A DNA stretch of 64,000 nucleotides from Candidatus Hydrogenedentota bacterium (GCA_045863295.1 BTWA01000032.1:1-64000); one strand, 5' to 3'. Positions 7,973-63,519 are shown, counted from the first letter of the stretch. Program-made: numbers and translations. The notes: a model not told the origin generated them from the sequence alone.

Positions 7973-8857
7973 GTGATGAGCACTTCAACAGACCTCATGG
8001 AGCAGCAGTCGGTTCGCGAAAAGGTGCGGGAAGGATATGCGAAGATCGCGGAGAACAAGGCGCAATCCCAAGGGAGCGCCGGGTCGTGTTGCGGCGGTGG
8101 TTGCGCAGTGACGGAGGATCAACTCGCGGCCGTGGTCGGATACGATCCCGAGGAGTTAGCGCAGTTGCCTGAAGGCGCGAACATGGGGTTGTCTTGCGGC
8201 AATCCCGTTGCACTGGCGTCTTTGAAGCCGGGCGAAGTGGTCGTGGATTTGGGATCGGGCGGTGGTTTCGACATTTTTCAGGCGGGCAAGAAAGTGGGCG
8301 CCACGGGCCGCGCGATCGGCGTGGACATGACGCCTGAGATGCTGGCGAAGGCGCGGCGGAATATTGCGGTGTACGAAGAGCGCACGGGACTTTCCAATGT
8401 GGAGTTCCGTCTGGGGGAAATTGAGCATTTGCCGTTGCCCGACAACAGTGTCGATGTGATCATCTCGAATTGCGTCATCAATCTTTCTCCGGACAAGCCG
8501 CAGGTGTGGCGTGAGATGGCGCGCGTGTTGAAGCCGGGCGGGCGCGTGGCTGTGTCGGACCTGGCGCTGCTTCAACCGCTTCCCGAGGCAGTGAAGAGCA
8601 TGGTAGAAGCGCTCGTTGGTTGCGTGGCCGGCGCGGTGCTCGTTGAGGAGACGGAAGGCATGGCGCGCGCGGCGGGATTTACACAGATCGTGCTGGAGAA
8701 GAAGGCCGGGTACGTCGATGCGCTGACCGAGTGGAACGATCCGATGTACCAAGCGGTGCTCGAGCAACTGCCCGCGGGCGTAAAGGCCGGCGACTTTGTG
8801 ACGAGTTTGAGCGTGAGCGCCGTGAAGGCGACGCGCACGCCATGCTGCGGCGGTTGA
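7973..8857 (+). CDS. arsM: Arsenite S-adenosylmethionine methyltransferase
   Basis: [45 protein letters not shown], plus N- and C-terminal CC pairs. Confidence 0.93.
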
Positions 8858-8884
8858 TCGCATCCGCGTTTTGTATGTTCATTC

Positions 8885-8915
8885 CCCCCGGTGTTCATGA
8901 CCCCGGGGGCTTTTT
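8885..8915 (+). terminator. Intrinsic terminator-like hairpin after arsM
   Basis: CCCCCGG (8885-8891)/CCGGGGG (8903-8909) stem followed by CTTTTT. Confidence 0.65.
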
Positions 8916-9042
8916 GTATGACCGATATCCCGGATATTTCACGGTATTGTCCCATTAATTGCGTGGCTGCACTAGCGCTCGGCAATTCTCGAAACTGCAG
9001 TTCTCACAGAATGCGGACTATCAACGAAGGCAGGGGGAAGCT

Positions 9043-10236
9043 ATGGGTACGAAAACCGGAGGCGGGCACGTGCAGGAAGGCGAGAAGGCGATGTCAGTCT
9101 TTGAGCGGTATCTTACGGTGTGGGTTGGGTTGTGCATTGCCGGGGGCATCGTGCTGGGCAAGGTTGCGCCGAACCTGGCGAAAACACTGGATGGAATGTC
9201 GGTGACGGTGGATGGCGCTCCCGTGGTCTCCATTCCAATCGCGGTCTGTCTCTTCTTCATGATGTATCCGATCATGGTGAAAATCGATTTTGCGGAGGTG
9301 GTGAAGGCAGGGAAGAGCTTTCGGCCGGTGTTGCTGACGCTGGTGGTGAACTGGGCCATCAAGCCGTTTACGATGTATGCCATTTCGCTGCTGTTTCTAG
9401 GTGTGCTGTTTCGCGGTTTCATCGGGGCGGATGCCGTGGATCTGGTCAAGATGCCGATGGGCCTGGATTTGGCTGAAGGCGCGACACACGGCGCCGGCAC
9501 GGTGGTGCTGGTGGACGGCGTGAAGATGTTGCAGGTGCCCTTGTGGCGCAGCTATCTGGCGGGATGCATTCTGCTGGGCGTCGCGCCGTGCACGGCGATG
9601 GTGCTGGTGTGGGGCTATCTGGCCAAAGGGAATGACGGCCACACGCTTGTCATGGTGGCGATTAATTCACTGACCATGCTCTTGCTTTACGGCGTGTTGG
9701 GCGGATTCCTGCTGGGGGTCGGAAGACTGCCGGTACCTTGGCAAGCGCTTTTGTTGTCCATCGCGATCTATGTTGCATTGCCCCTTGTCGCGGGTTACCT
9801 CTCTCGACGATGGATTATCGCCGCGAAAGGGGAAGCCTGGTTCAAGGAACGCTTTCTCCATGTCTTAACGCCGATCACCATTGTCGCGTTGCTGACCACT
9901 TTGGTGTTGCTCTTTTCATTCAAAGGCGAAGTTATTCTGGGCAATCCGTTGACGATACTTTGGATTGCCGTTCCCTTGTTTCTGCAGACCGTGTTGATAT
10001 TTGCACTGGGGTATGTGGCGGCCCGCGTTCTACGGTTTTCCTACGAAGACGCAGCACCTTCGGCGTTGATTGGGGCGTCAAACCATTTTGAAGTGGCTAT
10101 TGCCACGGCGGTGATGCTATTTGGTTTGTCGAGCGGGGCCGCGCTGGCGACCGTGGTGGGGGTATTAATTGAAGTTCCGGTGATGTTGATGCTGGTGAAG
10201 GTGTGCCAAAGGACAGAGGGTTGGTTTGTGCGATGA
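9043..10236 (+). CDS. acr3: ACR3 family arsenite efflux transporter
   Basis: [56 protein letters not shown]. Start is 9043 or 9091. Confidence 0.95.
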
Positions 10237-10407: not shown

Positions 10408-10728
10408 ATGGACCTGATGCGGAAAGATGATCTCATGTCGATCTGGATTCTGACACGGAAGCCCATGACCAATGGGCGGTGGTGGATATCGGTCAGCTTT
10501 CCCATGCTGATCCTTGTTGCGGCGATTTCGATTCTAACGGGGTATCTGATGCCCTACTTCGGCCCGAATCCTTGGCGCGCGGCTGTCGGGTCGCTCATAC
10601 TGGGTACCGGGCTTCTCACAGTTGGCATGTGGCGGCTGAGGGGCCGCGTCTATTTTACCTGGTTTGGGGTTGTCCTTTTCACCTTGGGTCTAATGCTTGT
10701 CCTGACCGCTGCCATTCGGGCGTTCTAA
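10408..10728 (+). CDS. Small hypothetical membrane protein (about 3 TM)
   Basis: Three hydrophobic segments fill the intergenic gap. Start is uncertain (10408, 10435 or 10465). Confidence 0.5.
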   Translation: MDLMRKDDLMSIWILTRKPMTNGRWWISVSFPMLILVAAISILTGYLMPYFGPNPWRAAVGSLILGTGLLTVGMWRLRGRVYFTWFGVVLFTLGLMLVLTAAIRAF

Positions 10729-10848
10729 ACGGATATCTTTGGCCGATTTATCGTACTTTTCCAGTGCTTTTGGCCTGCCCGAACACACCCGCACACTCAT
10801 GGTTATCATCAGATTTGCAACAAGCCGATATTTATTAATAAGAAACTC

Positions 10849-10893
10849 TTGATTTATATACTAAACATAGGTACTATTACTAAATAGTTCGGT
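10849..10893 (+). promoter_or_regulatory. Putative promoter of the DUF1559-hmu operon
   Basis: TTGATT (10849-10854), 17 bp, TACTAT (10872-10877) in an AT-rich patch with repeated TACTAAA. Confidence 0.5.
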
Positions 10894-11021
10894 CTGTTAT
10901 GTGGAGAAAACTTTAGGGAATAGTCGCTACAAAAAACGAGCCTGCTGACTCTTCCGTCTTCGCGAACCGTCAAATTCTTCGAAGCCGGTTTGCCAGCAGG
11001 CCCGCTATGGGAGACACGAAA

Positions 11022-11990
11022 ATGAAGAAGCGCGGGTTCACGCTGATTGAACTGTTGGTTGTAATCGCGATTATAGGCATTTTGGCGGCCATTCTGCTAC
11101 CGGCCTTGGCGCGGGCGCGGGAAGCGGCGCGGCGAGCGAGTTGTCAGAATAATCTGAAACAGTGGGGGTTGGTGTTCAAGATGTACGCCAACGAAGCCCC
11201 AAATGCTTCCTTTCCGAATTTCCAGGCGTCTTGGGAACCCATTGTCAACTGCAGCACGGGAGCCATCGTGCAGCCGGGCGCGCCCTTTGCGGGTGCTCCG
11301 ACCCACTGGCTGAATCCGTACATGCGCGCGGTGTATCCGGATTATTTGACCGATCCGGCGATTGTGCTGTGTCCTTCCAATGCATCCCTCGACGAAGAGG
11401 ACCTTCAAAACCCCACGACGGGCGAATGGGAAGCGCACAAGGTGTGCTTTGCGCCGATCCCGGGACCTCCGTTTGGTCAGTTCGATTCCGACCGGGGATT
11501 GGCGTTGTTGGCGGACAACTACTGGTATACGGGCTACCTGTACGACCGGGTGGGCGAAACGGATCCGCAAGCGCCGATATCTATCTTGGAAAGTGCCTCG
11601 ACGGAGACCGGATCGGCCCAGTTGATCTGGGGCATGACCATGGCCATCGGCAACTTCTTCGGGGGCAGCGTGGGCAACGACATCAACCTGAGCAGCGTAG
11701 CGCCGGGGATGGGAAATTCCGGCAGCAACACGATCTACCGGTTGCGTGAAGGGATCGAACGGTTCCTGCTCACGAATATCAACAGTCCCGCGAGCGGCAC
11801 GGCCTCGCAGAGTGCCGTTTTTGTCATGGGCGATCGGCTAAGTACTTATCCCAAGGAGTTCAACCACATTCCCGGCGGCGCCAACGTGTTGTTCATGGAC
11901 GGTCATGTGTCCTTTATCCGTCTCCATGACAAGGCGCCCGTGGTTCCGGGCGTGGCCAAAGTGTTTGGCGAACTTTCAATACACGGATGA
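11022..11990 (+). CDS. Prepilin-type N-terminal cleavage/methylation protein, DUF1559, with H-X9-DG-type C-terminus
   Basis: [82 protein letters not shown]. Confidence 0.92.
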
Positions 11991-12904
11991 CCAGAATGAA
12001 GACAGTTTTATCGACGTTCAGAAACGTCCAATGGATTGCGATCGTTGTCCTGTTGGCGTCCGCAATACCGGTCGCCCGTGGTGCGGAGCCTCCCCGCATC
12101 GTGAGCACGGATGGAACCACTACGGAAACCCTGTTTGCGTTGGGCGCGGGCGAATACGTGGTTGCGCGTGATTCGGGTTCGTTGTATCCGGCCGAGGCCG
12201 CGAAACTGCCGGATATTGGTACGGGCCATCAGTTGAACGCGGAAGCGATCATCGCGCAGAAGCCCACGTTGATCATCGGGAAAGACCGCGACATGAGCAA
12301 GCCGGGGTTTCAGATTCTGGAATCCACGGGTGCGGAAGTCGTGCGTCTTTCCGCGGACGCGAGCGTGGATGCGGCCAAGGAAAACATTCGTGCCGTGGCC
12401 AAGCTGGTGGGGAAAGAGGCCGAAGGCGAGACGCTCGTCAAGACGATAGACGACGATTTGGCCGCGCTGGCAAAGCACATGGAAGGCTTGGGCGACGTGC
12501 CGAAACCCCGGGTGTTGATGTTGTACCTTCGTCCGGGTACGGCGTTGCTTCTGGGCAATGACAGCAATGCGGCCGCGATGGCGAAATTGGCGGGCGCCAA
12601 TTACGCGCTTTCGGTGAAGGGGTATCGCAACCTAAACCCCGAAGCGCTCGTTGCCGCGCAGCCTGACGTCTATCTTTGCTTTACTTCCGGCCTTGATGCG
12701 GTGGGAGGGGTCGATGCGTTCCTGGAGCAACCGGGTATCGCGGAGACTCCGGGCGGCAAGTCCAAGCGGGTTATTGCCATGGACGATTTGTTGTTGGGTG
12801 GATTCGGTCCGCGCTTGGGCAAAGCGGCATTGGAGTTGTTCGATGCGTTGCACCATAAGCAGGGTGTATATGTGGCGAAACATGACCACACCCCGGGAAC
12901 GTGA
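11987..12904 (+). CDS. hmuT: Hemin ABC transporter periplasmic binding protein
   Basis: Signal peptide, [17 protein letters not shown]...[19 protein letters not shown]. Operon context with hmuUVS. Confidence 0.85.
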
Positions 12905-12907
12905 CCG

Positions 12908-13918
12908 GTGAGTCACTCTCGCTATCGCACTGCGCTCATTGCGTTGGGTGTGGCTTTGCCGGTGGTGTTACTTATATCCGCCGGTTTGGGCGCTTACTTT
13001 GTCGCGCCGTGGGATATTCCTCGGGTGCTTGCCGGGTCTCACGACGAGGCGGCCTTTCGCGTGCTTGCGTACATTCGATTTCCGCGTGTGGTGTTGAGCG
13101 CGCTCGTAGGCGCGGCGCTTGCGGTGGCCGGTGCGGGAATGCAAGGCCTGTTCCGCAATCCCCTCGCCGACCCGCAGTTGGTCGGCGTGACCGGCGGTGC
13201 GGCAGCGGGCGCTTCCATCAGTATCGTGTTTTTTGGCGCGGCGGGTCTTGGGTTGTGGACCGTGCCCGTGGCCGCTTTCCTGGGAAGCTGTCTGGCGGTG
13301 ACGGTCGTGTTGAAGATTGCGCAACTTTCCGGGACCGGCCGGACCGCGACGTTGTTGTTGACGGGTATCGCGGTTAATGCAATTGCTTTTGCCTGCATCG
13401 GTCTGATGATCACGTATGCCAACGATCAACAGTTGCGCGACATCACGTTCTGGCAGTTGGGCGGTTTCAGTCATTCCACGTGGCCGCTTGTCCTTGCGTC
13501 GGCCGTGTTCATGGCGGTGGGCATCGTGGTCCTGTTGCGGCTGGGGTCATCGTTAAACGCGTTGGCGTTGGGCGATCGCGAGGCGTTTCATCTGGGCATT
13601 TCGCTGCCGAGTGTGCAACGGAGATTGGTGGTTGCGTCCGCGCTGGTAGTGGGCGCCGCGGTGAGTGCCGCGGGCAGCATCGGCTTTGTCGGGCTGATCA
13701 CGCCCCACATGTTGCGTCTCACAATGGGCGCGGATCACCGGTGGCTGCTGCCGGCCTCGGCGCTGGGCGGCGCAATTCTGCTGACGTTGGCGGATTTGGC
13801 GGCCCGTACGATTGCCATGCCGACGGAGATTCCCGTGGGAATCATCACGGCGATCGCGGGCGGACCGTTCTTTATCTGGTTGATTCTGCGTAACGGGAGG
13901 AGGCATAGCCATGCTTGA
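12908..13918 (+). CDS. hmuU: Hemin ABC transporter permease (FecCD family)
   Basis: IRFPRV, QGLFRNPLADP, LGDREAFHLG, GSIGFVGLITPH, EIPVGIITA. Confidence 0.92.
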   Translation: MSHSRYRTALIALGVALPVVLLISAGLGAYFVAPWDIPRVLAGSHDEAAFRVLAYIRFPRVVLSALVGAALAVAGAGMQGLFRNPLADPQLVGVTGGAAAGASISIVFFGAAGLGLWTVPVAAFLGSCLAVTVVLKIAQLSGTGRTATLLLTGIAVNAIAFACIGLMITYANDQQLRDITFWQLGGFSHSTWPLVLASAVFMAVGIVVLLRLGSSLNALALGDREAFHLGISLPSVQRRLVVASALVVGAAVSAAGSIGFVGLITPHMLRLTMGADHRWLLPASALGGAILLTLADLAARTIAMPTEIPVGIITAIAGGPFFIWLILRNGRRHSHA

Positions 13919-14756
13919 GGCCGTCCAAACAGGGTATCGGGCGCACAACGGGCAATGGCTGCTGCGCCGTGTATCGCTTTCCGTCCAGCCTGGCAGGTTT
14001 TACGCGATTGCCGGAGCCAACGGCGCGGGTAAGACCACCCTGCTTCGGCTGTTGTGCGGCGAGATGCCTCCAAGCGAAGGCTGCGTCACTTGGCAGGGCC
14101 GTTCGGTCGCAACGATCTCCGCACGTCAGATGGCGCGCACGCGGGCATGCCTGGGGCAGAACCACGAAGGACAGTTTCCTTTTACCGCGTATGAAGTGGC
14201 CCTGATGGGCCGTACGCCGCATTTGCAGGGGGCGTACGAATCGGCCGAGGACCATGCCATCGTGCGGGCTGTGATGGACGAAACCGATGTGTCCGCGCTG
14301 GCGAACCGGCACTATCCCACGTTGTCGGGCGGCGAGGCAACGCGCACGCACGTGGCTCGCATTCTGGCACAGGACACGGCGGTCGTCCTCTTGGACGAGC
14401 CGACCAATCACCTCGATTTACGTCGGCAGGTGGAGACCCTTTCCATGTTCAGGCGCAAGACCGCCCAGTCAGGGATGGCGGTGGTGGCCGTGCTGCATGA
14501 TTTGAATCTGGCATCCCTGTATGCGGATGAATTGCTGGTGTTGCAGAAGGGCGTGACGGTGACGCAGGGCGCGCCGCGCGATGTGCTGACGCCGGAATTG
14601 GTCCGCGATGCGTTTGGCCTGCAATGCGTTGTCTGGCAGCATCCGTCGGGATGCCCTTGGGTGGTGCCAGTGCATGACGTGTCTTTACTGTCTGAAACCG
14701 TAGACCTTGCGATGCGCGATACTGCGCACGCTGTTTTGGAGGAGAGCCTGCGATGA
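13911..14756 (+). CDS. hmuV: Hemin ABC transporter ATP-binding protein
   Basis: GANGAGKTT, LSGGE, LLDEPTNHLD, VLHDLNLA. Confidence 0.9.
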   Translation: MLEAVQTGYRAHNGQWLLRRVSLSVQPGRFYAIAGANGAGKTTLLRLLCGEMPPSEGCVTWQGRSVATISARQMARTRACLGQNHEGQFPFTAYEVALMGRTPHLQGAYESAEDHAIVRAVMDETDVSALANRHYPTLSGGEATRTHVARILAQDTAVVLLDEPTNHLDLRRQVETLSMFRRKTAQSGMAVVAVLHDLNLASLYADELLVLQKGVTVTQGAPRDVLTPELVRDAFGLQCVVWQHPSGCPWVVPVHDVSLLSETVDLAMRDTAHAVLEESLR

Positions 14757-15814
14757 CCCCAGAATCGGCTACCTTGGATCGCGTGGAAGAACTGAAAGCG
14801 CGCTGGACCGCGTATCGAGACTCGCAGAAGCGCGCAAATATGTACGACGCCGCGGAACAGTTCGGTGTAAGCGAGGCGGAACTCCTGGCAACTGGCACGG
14901 GCGACACCGTAACGCGATTGCGTCCGGAGTGGGGGGAGATTCTCGGCGGCCTGGAGGCCTGCGGCCACGTGATGACACTGACGCGCAACCGTTATGCCGT
15001 GCACGAGAAGCACGGGGTATATGCGCCCTACACGCACGGCGCGCATGCTTCGCTTGTTGTGAGCGAGGCCATCGACCTTCGCATATTCACGACGAAGTGG
15101 TTGTACGGATTCGCCGTGAACAACCCGTTGGGAAAGGCGTACAAGCTCAGTTTTCAGTTTTTTGACGCGCAAGGCGATTCCGTGCACAAGGTGTTTGTGC
15201 CTGATAGCGCTGCCGAAGCGTTTGAGGCCTTGCGAAATCAGTTCCTGCACGACGATCAATCGCCGGCGCTTTCGGGAGTGCAGCGGCCGGCAGCGTTTCA
15301 GGTGCCGCAAGAGAATGCGGATGCGGCTGCACTGCGCGAGGCTTGGGGCGCGATGAAAGACACGCACGACTTCTTCGGAATGCTCAAGAAGGTGAAATAC
15401 GATCGCCTGCCGGCGCTGAAGCATGTGGGCGCTGTATTTGCCGAACGTCTGAGCACGACGGCTTACCGCGACGCCATGGAGTCCGCGTCGGCGTCAGGCA
15501 TGCCGATCATGATCTTCGTGGGCAACACCGGGTGCATTCAGATTCACACGGGTCCGGTGAAACGGCTTGTGGCCATGGACGAATGGTACAACGTGCTGGA
15601 CGAGGATTTTAACCTGCACCTGCGCACCGGCGGCGTGGCGGAGACGTGGCTTGTGCGCAAGCCGACCACCGACGGCATGGTGACCTCCGTCGAACTGTAC
15701 GACGCGGACGGCAAAGAGATCGGACTGATTTTCGGCAAGCGTAAGCCGGGGATTCCCGAACTGAGTGAATGGCGGCAACTGGCGGAATCGCTGCCGCGTT
15801 GGGCAGGCAACTAG
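14753..15814 (+). CDS. hmuS: HemS/HmuS/ChuS heme degradation/trafficking protein
   Basis: GVSEAELL, LTRNRYAVHEKHG, IDLRIF, QFFDAQGDSVHKVF, DTHDFFGML, FVGNTGCIQIHTG, FGKRKPG. Confidence 0.93.
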   Translation: MTPESATLDRVEELKARWTAYRDSQKRANMYDAAEQFGVSEAELLATGTGDTVTRLRPEWGEILGGLEACGHVMTLTRNRYAVHEKHGVYAPYTHGAHASLVVSEAIDLRIFTTKWLYGFAVNNPLGKAYKLSFQFFDAQGDSVHKVFVPDSAAEAFEALRNQFLHDDQSPALSGVQRPAAFQVPQENADAAALREAWGAMKDTHDFFGMLKKVKYDRLPALKHVGAVFAERLSTTAYRDAMESASASGMPIMIFVGNTGCIQIHTGPVKRLVAMDEWYNVLDEDFNLHLRTGGVAETWLVRKPTTDGMVTSVELYDADGKEIGLIFGKRKPGIPELSEWRQLAESLPRWAGN

Positions 15815-23300: not shown

Positions 23301-23354
23301 CCGGGTTCGATTACCTGCTCGCGCGGGGGAAGTACGCCGGGGAGGATGAAGGCC

Positions 23355-24245
23355 ATGAAGAAGTCTGGGTTCACGCTTGTCGAGCTTCTGGTGGTGATCG
23401 CGATCATTTCGATTCTTGGGGCATTGTTGATGTCCGGTTTGAGCCGGGCGATGGAACTTGGCCGGCGCACGACGTGCGTCAACAATCTCAAGCAGATCGG
23501 CATCGCGTTCATGCTGTTTGCCGATGAAAACCGGGACTATTGGCCGCCACGCCATGTGCCATACTTTAATTCGTATTCGCCAAACGTCGGGTGCTACGCA
23601 AGTTTCGACGGGGAGTTCGTGTATCCCGATTACTTGACGGATGCCAACGTTCTCCTTTGTCCGAGCGACGGCGAGTATTTTGTGGAAGGGCGATTGGAGA
23701 GCAATCTACAAATGCCGGTGGGTCCGGGGTGGAACGCGTCAAACTTTCACAATCCGGTGCGGAACAAGGCGACGTTTGTTCACATGCCGGACTATTCGTA
23801 TGTGTATTGGGGATACATGATTAATCCCGCCGATGCCGCGACAACGCCGGATGTGGATGCGTTGGCGTTGAAGCTGGTGAACATTCATCCGGATGCGGTC
23901 AACTTCACCACGCGCTGGAGCGACCTTGAGGTTACGTTGCCGACGTGGGCCGATCCGATAACACTGCACCGGTTGCGCAATGGTATCGAACGGATCATGA
24001 TTACGGATATCAACAGTCCGGCGGCGGGTTCGCACAGCGCGTCGGAGGTGGCCGTGATTTGGGATCACGTGAGCCGGCGCGGCGGGGCCTTCTACATGCC
24101 CGACCGCAATCACTTGCCACTGGCGGCCAACGTGTCGTTTCTCGATGGACATGTGGAGTGGGGGCGGTATCCGCAGCCTTCGGGGTCAAAGTTTTTCATG
24201 CTGACGGAAGCGGCACAGGCGTGCGCGGTGGATGAATTTCCGTGA
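23355..24245 (+). CDS. Prepilin-type DUF1559 protein (second copy)
   Basis: [18 protein letters not shown]...[50 protein letters not shown] at 23341. Confidence 0.9.
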
Positions 24246-50249: not shown

Positions 50250-50340
50250 TGATCGTTTGGCGTGCACGTGATTTCTGCTCAGCAAAACCGCGGGGTTTGA
50301 CAATATCCTGTCCGCAATGGCACGATGAGAGCCTCATCGG

Positions 50341-50419
50341 CCTGCCGTGACTGGCGATGCAAGGTGGAACCAACCACCGGGGAGCGGCGGGTCTTGGGTT
50401 TCTTGCCGATCGCCTGGGC
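50341..50419 (+). ncRNA. ZMP/ZTP riboswitch (pfl motif)
   Basis: CCTGCC-GTGACTGGCG-..-GGTGG-loop-CCACC-GGGGAGC-GGCGGG, linker, GCCGATCGCCTGGGC matches the pfl consensus. TTGACA promoter element at 50297. Confidence 0.92.
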
Positions 50420-50504
50420 GCTCTGAATTGAATGTGTTGCGGGGAGTGGTGCGTCCATTCTCCGCCGGCAACATGCCACGGAGTGCGGCATGGCGGAGGC
50501 CCGG

Positions 50505-62445: not shown

Positions 62446-63519
62446 ATGATTCTTGAAGACCTGATGTACAAAGCCGTGGAAATCAAGGCTTCCGATATCC
62501 ATATCAAGACGGGTAATCCGCCCATCTTTCGTATTGACGGTGACCTTAAACGCGAAGATGGACCGGGGCTGACCAACGATCAGGTCATCCATTTGTTGGC
62601 GTCCATTGCTGCCCCCGCGGATATGGAACGCTTCAAGAAGGTGCTCGAACTGGATATTTCCTACATGCTCGGCGACATCGCGCGGTTCCGTGTAAACGCC
62701 TGCCGCGAAGACGGCGACGTGCGTATTGTGCTGCGCGTTATTCCCAAGGTGATTAAGACGATCGAAGAGTGCGCCTTGCCTGCCATCATGAACAAAATCG
62801 CCCTCGTGCGCGATGGGCTCGTTCTGGTGACAGGCGTCACCGGTAGCGGCAAATCCACCTCCCTGGCCGCCATGATCGACAAGATCAACACCACAAAGGG
62901 CGTCCACGTCGTAACCGTGGAGGACCCCCTGGAATTTGTCCATCAGGACAAGAAATCCATCATCACCCAACGCGAAGTCGGCCACGATACACTTTCGTTT
63001 ACAAATGCGCTTCGGGCAGCCCTCCGGCAGGACCCCGACGTTATTCTGGTCGGCGAAATGCGCGACACCGAGACGGTACGCACCGCGATTTCCGCCGCGG
63101 AAACAGGTCACCTCGTATTCTCGACGTTGCATACCGTCGATGCCGTCGAGACCCTGCACCGCATCATGGATTTCTTCGAGCCGCACCAGCAACCCCAAGT
63201 GCGCAAGCAATTGGCCAGCGTATTGCGCGCCGTCATATCCCAGCGCCTCCTGCCCAAAAACAATGCCCCAGGGCGTGCAGTCGCAGCCGAAATCCTCATC
63301 GGTAACAGGACCGTTCGCGATTTCGTGGAACAGGGGAAGAGCTTCAAAGACATTACGCGCCTGATCGAGGAAGGCCGCGATCAATACGGCATGCAAACGT
63401 TCGATCAGGCGTTGTACGATCTCTACAAGAAAGGCGAGATCACGGAAGAGGTTGCCCTTATCAATGCAACCAGCGCGCGCGATCTCAAACTGAAAATTCA
63501 GGGCATGGCCAAATCCTAG
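62446..63519 (+). CDS. pilT: Type IV pilus retraction ATPase PilT/PilU family
   Basis: ASDIH, GVTGSGKSTS, EDPLE, ALRQDPDVILVGEMRD, ETGHLVFSTLH, GMQTFDQ. Confidence 0.93.
   Translation: MILEDLMYKAVEIKASDIHIKTGNPPIFRIDGDLKREDGPGLTNDQVIHLLASIAAPADMERFKKVLELDISYMLGDIARFRVNACREDGDVRIVLRVIPKVIKTIEECALPAIMNKIALVRDGLVLVTGVTGSGKSTSLAAMIDKINTTKGVHVVTVEDPLEFVHQDKKSIITQREVGHDTLSFTNALRAALRQDPDVILVGEMRDTETVRTAISAAETGHLVFSTLHTVDAVETLHRIMDFFEPHQQPQVRKQLASVLRAVISQRLLPKNNAPGRAVAAEILIGNRTVRDFVEQGKSFKDITRLIEEGRDQYGMQTFDQALYDLYKKGEITEEVALINATSARDLKLKIQGMAKS

Follow-up and report, generated by a model that had tools for sequence, protein, structure and literature searches.

A 64,000-nucleotide stretch of DNA from a Candidatus Hydrogenedentota bacterium (GCA_045863295.1 BTWA01000032.1:1-64000; hereafter the window, with coordinates counted from its first letter) carries a haem-import operon, hmuTUVS, that is headed by a gene for a prepilin-like protein of the DUF1559/HX9DG type. 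What does a pilin-like protein do at the head of a haem operon? The reading we favour, with a probability of roughly 0.6, is that it is a haem-dedicated, pseudopilin-like envelope component that acts upstream of HmuT, at the step done elsewhere by a TonB-dependent receptor. A functional link to haem is well supported for the orthogroup to which the protein belongs.

The window's own genome (G000) comprises 6.3 Mb in 88 contigs and is 96% complete. It was compared with 133 genomes of its class and with 135 species genomes of the phylum Hydrogenedentota. Five genes on one strand fill positions 11022-15814:

11022..11990, + strand: haem-linked DUF1559/HX9DG prepilin-type gene, 322 amino acids, with leader MKKRG, cleavage motif G|FTLIE, a conserved hydrophobic helix and a 278-amino-acid head.
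11987..12904, + strand: hmuT, predicted periplasmic haem-binding protein with a Sec signal peptide (Peripla_BP_2 PF01497, 1.7e-31).
12908..13918, + strand: hmuU, FecCD-type permease (PF01032, 1e-89).
13911..14756, + strand: hmuV, ATP-binding cassette (ABC) ATPase (PF00005; NF010068 haem ABC ATPase at 260.7 bits, just below the cut-off of 261).
14753..15814, + strand: hmuS, two-domain HemS/ChuX protein, predicted cytoplasmic haem carrier or degrading protein (PF05171, 1.6e-74, in two stretches; PF06228).

The open reading frames and the Pfam/NCBIfam matches agree with the five-gene order and coordinates given in an earlier note on this sequence. The translational coupling claimed there can be read directly: the stop codon of the DUF1559 gene and the start codon of hmuT share four nucleotides (ATGA, 11987-11990), and a second four-nucleotide ATGA overlap joins hmuV to hmuS at 14753-14756. 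Among 21 DUF1559-type paralogs of G000 the operon copy alone overlaps a downstream gene (0 of the 20 others examined). The DUF1559 reading frame can start at 11007 or 11022 and ends at 11990; the ATG at 11022 is the likelier start, since GGAG stands 9 nucleotides upstream of it and it leaves a five-residue leader before G|FTLIE, as in the orthologs. The best solved relatives of HmuT are haem-binding proteins (5gj3 at 5.9e-47 and Yersinia HmuT, 3md9, at 2.9e-36; also 3nu1, 5b58, 2r7a and 5khl), while BtuF trails them at only about 1e-9. A profile search of the genome found HemS at this locus only.

All the features of a class III signal peptide are present in the first protein, namely a short basic leader, Gly at -1, Phe at +1, Glu at +5 and a hydrophobic helix. 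The N-terminal methylation profiles PF07963 (N_methyl, 39 bits against a cut-off of 21.2) and TIGR02532 (37.4 bits against 16.3) match, as does the C-terminal HX9DG profile TIGR04294 (28 bits against 19, at residues 289-305 of the 327-amino-acid reading frame). DUF1559 itself (PF07596) matches at 41.7 bits against a cut-off of 23.3, and at 32.9 bits at the same place in the genome search. G000 holds many such proteins, with 25 DUF1559 matches at the Pfam level and 46 at the protein level.

Within this large family the window protein belongs to a distinct orthogroup. Searched against the 133 class genomes, it recovers a top tier at 432-510 bits and 58-67% identity, against 300 bits or less for everything else; over the orthogroup as a whole identity is 52-67%, and to its paralogs about 35-45%. 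The top tier occupies 25 places in 24 of the 133 class genomes, and a query with the head only recovers the same 24 among the 135 genomes of the phylum. Two further copies are cut by contig ends (G034 and G115), which brings the orthogroup to 27 loci in 26 of 135 genomes; it is known from Hydrogenedentota, the phylum to which all of the genomes searched belong. The ESM Atlas returns solely DUF1559 clusters, mostly of Hydrogenedentota. With 12 paralogs as outgroup, the tree unites the orthologs in a single clade (support 82/60; 98/91 with one long-branched outlier).

The neighbours of the orthologs were mapped by tblastn of reference proteins on the fetched flanks, together with Pfam annotation, and fall into the following arrangements:

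hmuT-hmuU-hmuV(-hmuS) directly downstream: 9 loci (G000, G005, G019, G119, G120, G121, G122, G108 and G111).
DUF6607 gene directly downstream: 14 loci (12 full loci plus those of G034 and G115).
CbiX lipoprotein and PepSY_TM-like protein: 1 locus (G011).
PepSY_TM protein: 1 locus (the second copy in G120).
CbiX protein upstream, paralog downstream: 1 locus (G044).
No haem-related neighbour: 1 locus (G049).

The synteny proposed as a check in the earlier note was thus found within Hydrogenedentota: HmuT orthologs occur in 9 of the 133 class genomes, and all nine stand directly after a DUF1559 ortholog. These nine loci represent four genera in two families (g1, g6 and g20 in one, g45 in the other), and a tenth hmuUVS set, in G107, lies on a contig that ends inside hmuU. 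In the tree the window copy joins the g45 copies of the other family (99/92) and not the g6 and g20 copies of its own, which suggests that the whole DUF1559-hmuTUVS cassette may have been transferred between lineages.

The second frequent partner is also a haem protein by homology. Over 265 residues, the DUF6607 protein (PF20311) of G008 matches RhuH, a haemophore of Riemerella anatipestifer with a solved structure (PDB 8xjc), at E 1.9e-58. According to the report on RhuH (PMC11967795), this haemophore binds haem with nanomolar or better affinity in a manner dependent on His96, contacts the propionates through R143, Y144, R170, R183 and Q198, and is encoded divergently from the TonB-dependent receptor gene rhuR. 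Across 11 Hydrogenedentota copies the equivalents of His96 (KHWRQDW), R143/Y144 (PRY), R170 (RRE) and Q198 (QDN) are invariant, while that of R183 is not conserved. A signal peptide is present in all 11, and several have a lipobox-like cysteine. DUF6607 occurs in 15 of the 135 phylum genomes, as a single copy in each, and in 14 of the 15 it directly follows the DUF1559 ortholog; a genome search found it absent from G000, and HmuT orthologs and DUF6607 do not co-occur in any genome. Two haem gene sets that are unrelated to each other, one for an importer and one for a haemophore, are thus linked to the orthogroup.

A different arrangement was found around metagenomic DUF6607 genes. Among the best 80 of at least 574 such loci, none had a DUF1559-like gene within 3.5 kb (tblastn, E <= 1e-5). 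A Pfam scan of 103 long flanking reading frames from 64 of these loci (of the 16 left out, 8 had no flanking reading frame of 200 amino acids and 8 were omitted for size) showed a TonB-dependent receptor or Plug gene at 13 or more of the 64, HmuY at one and FecCD at one; 13 is a lower bound because only the longest reading frame on each side was used.

Two further gene types were seen in these surveys. CbiX-type chelatase-like proteins, exported or membrane-anchored, stand beside three orthologs (G008, G011 and G044; sites L026 2329-2958, L022 10577-11545 and L028 8681-9370), and could remove iron from haem in the periplasm of genomes without HmuTUV. A divergent second HemS-type gene, with 30-35% identity to the window HmuS and without hmuTUV, is found at loci L061-L065 in genus g45 (G057, G051, G105, G109 and G107); in G057 a DUF1559 paralog with 47% identity lies about 5 kb downstream of this lone HemS-type gene.

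The earlier note had remarked that the window contains no TonB-dependent receptor and no tonB. This holds beyond the window for the nearly complete genome: searches for the receptor (PF00593), Plug (PF07715) and TonB C-terminal (PF03544) profiles gave 0 matches in the whole of G000, with positive controls in E. coli, Caulobacter and Bacteroides. No receptor was found on the contig of any ortholog locus. All three receptors examined in hmu-type relatives (one in G005 and two in G111) belong to a cassette with DUF4154 and a CHASE8 hybrid kinase and without haem genes, which looks like a signalling module rather than a nutrient uptake locus; the sites are L230 (G005:C7), L232 (G111:C8) and L233 (G111:C247), and DUF4154 is YfiR/HmsC-like. 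Placing the pilin-like gene in the usual position of a receptor is thus well supported by synteny, by the lack of TonB in G000 and by the placement of the examined receptors away from haem genes. G000, G019, G108 and G120 lack TonB transport altogether, which does not apply to every carrier.

Residue conservation also sets the orthogroup apart. When 25 orthologs are aligned with 81 paralogs (106 sequences), C117, Y108, Y167, Y169 and the HX9DG residues are invariant family-wide, with the H...DGH residues present in all 106. By contrast, W71, E72, I74, H95, W96, E137, R272, F315 and H321, the last near the C-terminus, are invariant or nearly so in the orthologs and occur in at most 9% of the paralogs. 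H95, the His of THWLN, is found in 25 of 25 orthologs and 0 of 81 paralogs, and together with H321 is a candidate axial haem ligand. Of the ligands first proposed for the variable middle of the protein, the THWLN histidine is therefore retained, as invariant in orthologs only, and that of HKVC is not conserved. The paralog that had been placed near 23355 was located at 23346/23355-24245 and is 34.7% identical to the operon protein. Over the 44 residues that follow the cleavage site, 20 G000 paralogs average 92% identity, compared with about 35% in the heads; variable heads on an unchanging stem are to be expected if such proteins are interchangeable subunits in one filament system.

A structural model built from the 106-sequence alignment was confident (predicted local distance difference test, pLDDT, 91.7; predicted template modelling score, pTM, 0.87); a first model from the 25 orthologs had a pLDDT of 44 and was discarded. 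Foldseek against the PDB gave no match at E <= 0.001, and a head-profile sequence search of solved structures gave nothing below E 0.3. Exhaustive structural alignment returned weak matches (Z 2.0-2.9, over 75-88 of 278 residues), almost all to type IV pilins or the pseudopilin EpsG; the DNA-binding minor pilin ComP (PDB 5hz7) is among them at Z 2.8. The head in this model is most aptly viewed as a pilin core with about 190 additional residues that have no recognisable solved relative. A complex prediction of the head and mature HmuT, with haem riding along, scored 0.00 and counts neither way.

The route that we propose is as follows, with the protein as a cargo-specific pseudopilin or minor pilin. 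A prepilin peptidase would cut the protein at G|F, and its near-invariant hydrophobic N-terminal helix would fit it into a type IV filament or a type II secretion-like machine with its secretins. The orthogroup-specific head would bind haem, with H95 and H321 as candidate axial ligands, or would dock a haem carrier, which in relatives would be the RhuH-type haemophore encoded immediately downstream; this contact would be made outside the cell or inside a secretin. Haem would then pass to periplasmic HmuT, to HmuUV and finally to HmuS. G000 encodes a prepilin peptidase (Peptidase_A24 at C25:51430) and is diderm, with one BamA in the genome profile search. Its type IV filament inventory is unusually rich, with 7 secretins above the cut-off and 19 T2SSE-family ATPase matches, about half of them PilT-sized. 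The pilT gene noted earlier at 62446 corresponds to a T2SSE-family match at 62452-63264; as one of 19 in the genome, and 50 kb away, it is not specifically linked to the operon. Since both ferrochelatase and ALAD are encoded in G000, the cell probably imports haem to gain iron or to salvage it and not to make good an auxotrophy.

The original interpretation, a pilus or pseudopilus subunit that captures haem and hands it to HmuT, is supported in part: its haem link and its receptor-position claim fare well, and haem binding by the protein itself, its assembly into a (pseudo)pilus, passage of haem across the outer membrane by retraction and transfer to HmuT stand as predictions. Its furthest extension is that a cargo-specific pseudopilus imports haem, bound directly or taken from a RhuH-type haemophore, via a secretin in place of a TonB-dependent receptor and that, more generally, the hundreds of DUF1559/HX9DG paralogs in Planctomycetota-like bacteria are interchangeable cargo heads on a constant stem that provide TonB-independent nutrient capture. 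This we regard as possible and put forward tentatively, with more doubt than belief.

Upstream of the operon lies an element that recurs at a number of the ortholog loci:

10848..10880, + strand: promoter-like element of 33 nucleotides (TTGATT, 17-nucleotide spacer, TACTAT) with a strongly conserved spacer; putative promoter, possible operator.

Eleven of the 25 loci have it ahead of the ortholog, irrespective of the downstream partner, and these include L022, L023, L025, L049, L054, L056, L057 and L059. In G000 the element is unique, at 40.3 bits against 25.8 for the next-best site in the genome. A promoter consensus scan chose another hexamer pair, which overlaps the TTGATT/TACTAT element. 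Judged from its sequence, the element may be the operon promoter and also the operator for some regulator. An Rfam search of the 5' leader gave no match at E <= 1. The motif's first half recurs just ahead of another G000 DUF1559 paralog, at C13:114173.

A number of results weigh against a haem-dedicated, pseudopilin-like component. The PF07596 match spans only profile positions 2-28 of 268, and the GspG equivalog TIGR01710 scores 41 bits, far below its cut-off of 88.85, so the window protein is not GspG itself. Its head has no recognisable haem motif or solved relative, and the pilin fold matches are weak, with Z below 3. TonB-dependent receptors are present in 43 of the 133 class genomes (39 of them above the cut-off), including 5 of the 9 hmu-type genomes, so that having the pilin-like protein does not simply stand in for having TonB. 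Since an HmuT ortholog is missing wherever the RhuH-type partner occurs, HmuT cannot be the universal acceptor. The G049 ortholog has no haem-related neighbour, and the DUF6607 gene of that genome is on another contig. No E. coli-type Fur box was found in the 25 upstream regions (the best sites had 6-11 mismatches, no better than shuffles), a result that concerns the E. coli-type box and is compatible with iron regulation via another operator. All of the genomes are metagenome-assembled, and the 26 carriers span 13-14 genera and are hence non-independent.

Other explanations of the linkage have to be set against the same evidence. The protein could be an inner-membrane-anchored periplasmic helper and not a fibre subunit, acting on haem as a periplasmic chaperone or sink, or giving HmuT or the RhuH-like protein a place to dock, while haem diffuses across the outer membrane via porins or secretin pores. 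The same genetic linkage fits such a helper, and receptor-free haem entry through a secretin pore is described for a gonococcal pilQ mutant (review PMC6449446). We nevertheless judge it unlikely: the Glu at +5 and a helix that is 92% identical across 20 paralogs are expected of subunits that have to fit one shared filament core and assembly machine and would be needless for an anchor, and the genome has its 7 secretins and 19 T2SSE-family matches. Less likely again is a co-regulated protein that does not itself handle haem, such as a starvation-induced adhesin or surface pilin, for example for haem-rich particles or prey. The promoter-like element, conserved in 11 of 25 loci whatever the partner, would suit this, as would the general iron genes PepSY_TM and CbiX among the neighbours. 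However, at 23 of 27 loci the partners are specifically haem genes, the importer and haemophore sets are mutually unrelated while the pilin-like gene is the constant element, and the translational coupling to hmuT suggests matched stoichiometry.

Secretion in the opposite direction was also considered: the RhuH-type haemophore would be exported by a type II secretion-like machine in which the protein is a pseudopilin. Fourteen orthologs do precede a RhuH homolog with a signal peptide or lipoprotein character, and there is weak GspG-type similarity at the N-terminus. This account fits poorly, since the nine hmu-type genomes keep the ortholog without any DUF6607 gene; the annotated flanks contain no gene for a secretion ATPase, platform or secretin, and we consider haemophore export highly improbable. 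Almost no weight is given to chance or hitch-hiking adjacency. Although the 25 Pfam-level and 46 protein-level DUF1559 matches in G000 make some adjacency expected, the reciprocal adjacency of 9/9 and 14/15 extends over 13-14 genera, its recurrence in every HmuT-bearing class genome is not what chance would give, and the neighbour always comes from the same orthogroup among dozens of paralogs per genome. A haem-dedicated, pseudopilin-like component upstream of HmuT remains our preferred explanation.

In type IV pilus DNA uptake, a specialised pilin (ComP) binds its cargo outside the cell, and retraction through the secretin passes this cargo to a binding protein in the periplasm and a transporter in the inner membrane. 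ComP of Neisseria (PDB 5hz7), which is also among the weak fold matches, offers the nearest mechanistic analogy to the route proposed here. The two differ in that the proposed cargo is haem and the acceptor HmuT, that the head has about 190 residues more than that of a pilin, and that assembly and retraction are predictions here. A second parallel comes from a Neisseria gonorrhoeae pilQ mutant, in which haem enters through the PilQ secretin (Chen et al. 2004, as described in review PMC6449446). Here too passage is receptor- and TonB-independent via a type IV pilus secretin, but the route is a leaky mutant pore and not a dedicated system with its own pilin-like component.

Compared with the proteobacterial Hmu/Hem/Chu/Shu/Phu loci, the operon has HmuT, the FecCD permease, the ABC ATPase and the two-domain HemS/ChuX protein in the usual order, whereas G000 is without receptor, Plug and TonB and the prepilin-type DUF1559 gene comes first in the operon. 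The Riemerella RhuH/RhuR/RhuA system (PDB 8xjc; PMC11967795) is similar in that the RhuH homolog of the Hydrogenedentota relatives keeps the His96 equivalent and the propionate-binding residues except R183. It differs in that the Hydrogenedentota neighbour is the DUF1559 ortholog, with no receptor on the contig, and in that G000 is without a RhuH homolog. The DUF1559/HX9DG families of Planctomycetota and related phyla share the N-terminal cleavage/methylation motif, the helix and the C-terminal HX9DG, while the window orthogroup has in addition a conserved pathway context and its own invariant residues.

Literature searches returned no functional account of DUF1559, nothing under the name DUF6607 and no description of a pilin-linked haem system. 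In print, DUF1559 appears as a very large family of unknown function (PMC10632474, PMC2754498) and as the largest paralog group of Planctopirus limnophila, likewise with function unknown (PMC10632474). Haem uptake with a pilin-like component in the receptor's place would be categorically new should the pseudopilus mechanism prove real. In Planctomycetota, Hydrogenedentota and neighbouring lineages the DUF1559/HX9DG proteins rank with the largest paralog families; a genome carries dozens to about 100 copies, none with a known function. The haem context supplies a predicted ligand, candidate residues (H95 and H321), paralogs from the same genome as natural negative controls, and predicted partners in HmuT and the RhuH-like protein, so that DUF1559 function can now be tested with recombinant proteins and with no culture required. 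If true, a pilin-like outer-membrane step would be a new haem route for diderm bacteria without TonB and a model for the rest of the family.

Several genes around the operon and elsewhere in the genome were also recorded. Upstream, at 7973-10236 (+ strand), lies an arsenic methylation/efflux-like pair, a Methyltransf_31 S-adenosylmethionine-dependent methyltransferase with Cys-rich ends followed by an ACR3/SBF-type transporter. These genes and a small membrane protein gene at 10408-10728 were considered as parts of the system and rejected, since neither is conserved beside the orthologs. Among the other G000 paralogs, as judged by eye, those at C4:46107, C13:114257 and C1:184871 precede small lipoprotein-like genes, and of those at C44:4468 and C10:61968 one precedes a P-loop GTPase-like gene and the other a large exported protein. 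A search of sequencing runs found DNA of the organism in sludge and bioreactor metagenomes and listed no RNA run; the single run labelled as possible RNA is probably DNA, with contigs that span only parts of the locus. The sole Rfam match in the window is a ZMP/ZTP riboswitch (RF01750) at 50337-50426 (+ strand), which scores 67 bits against a gathering score of 39.

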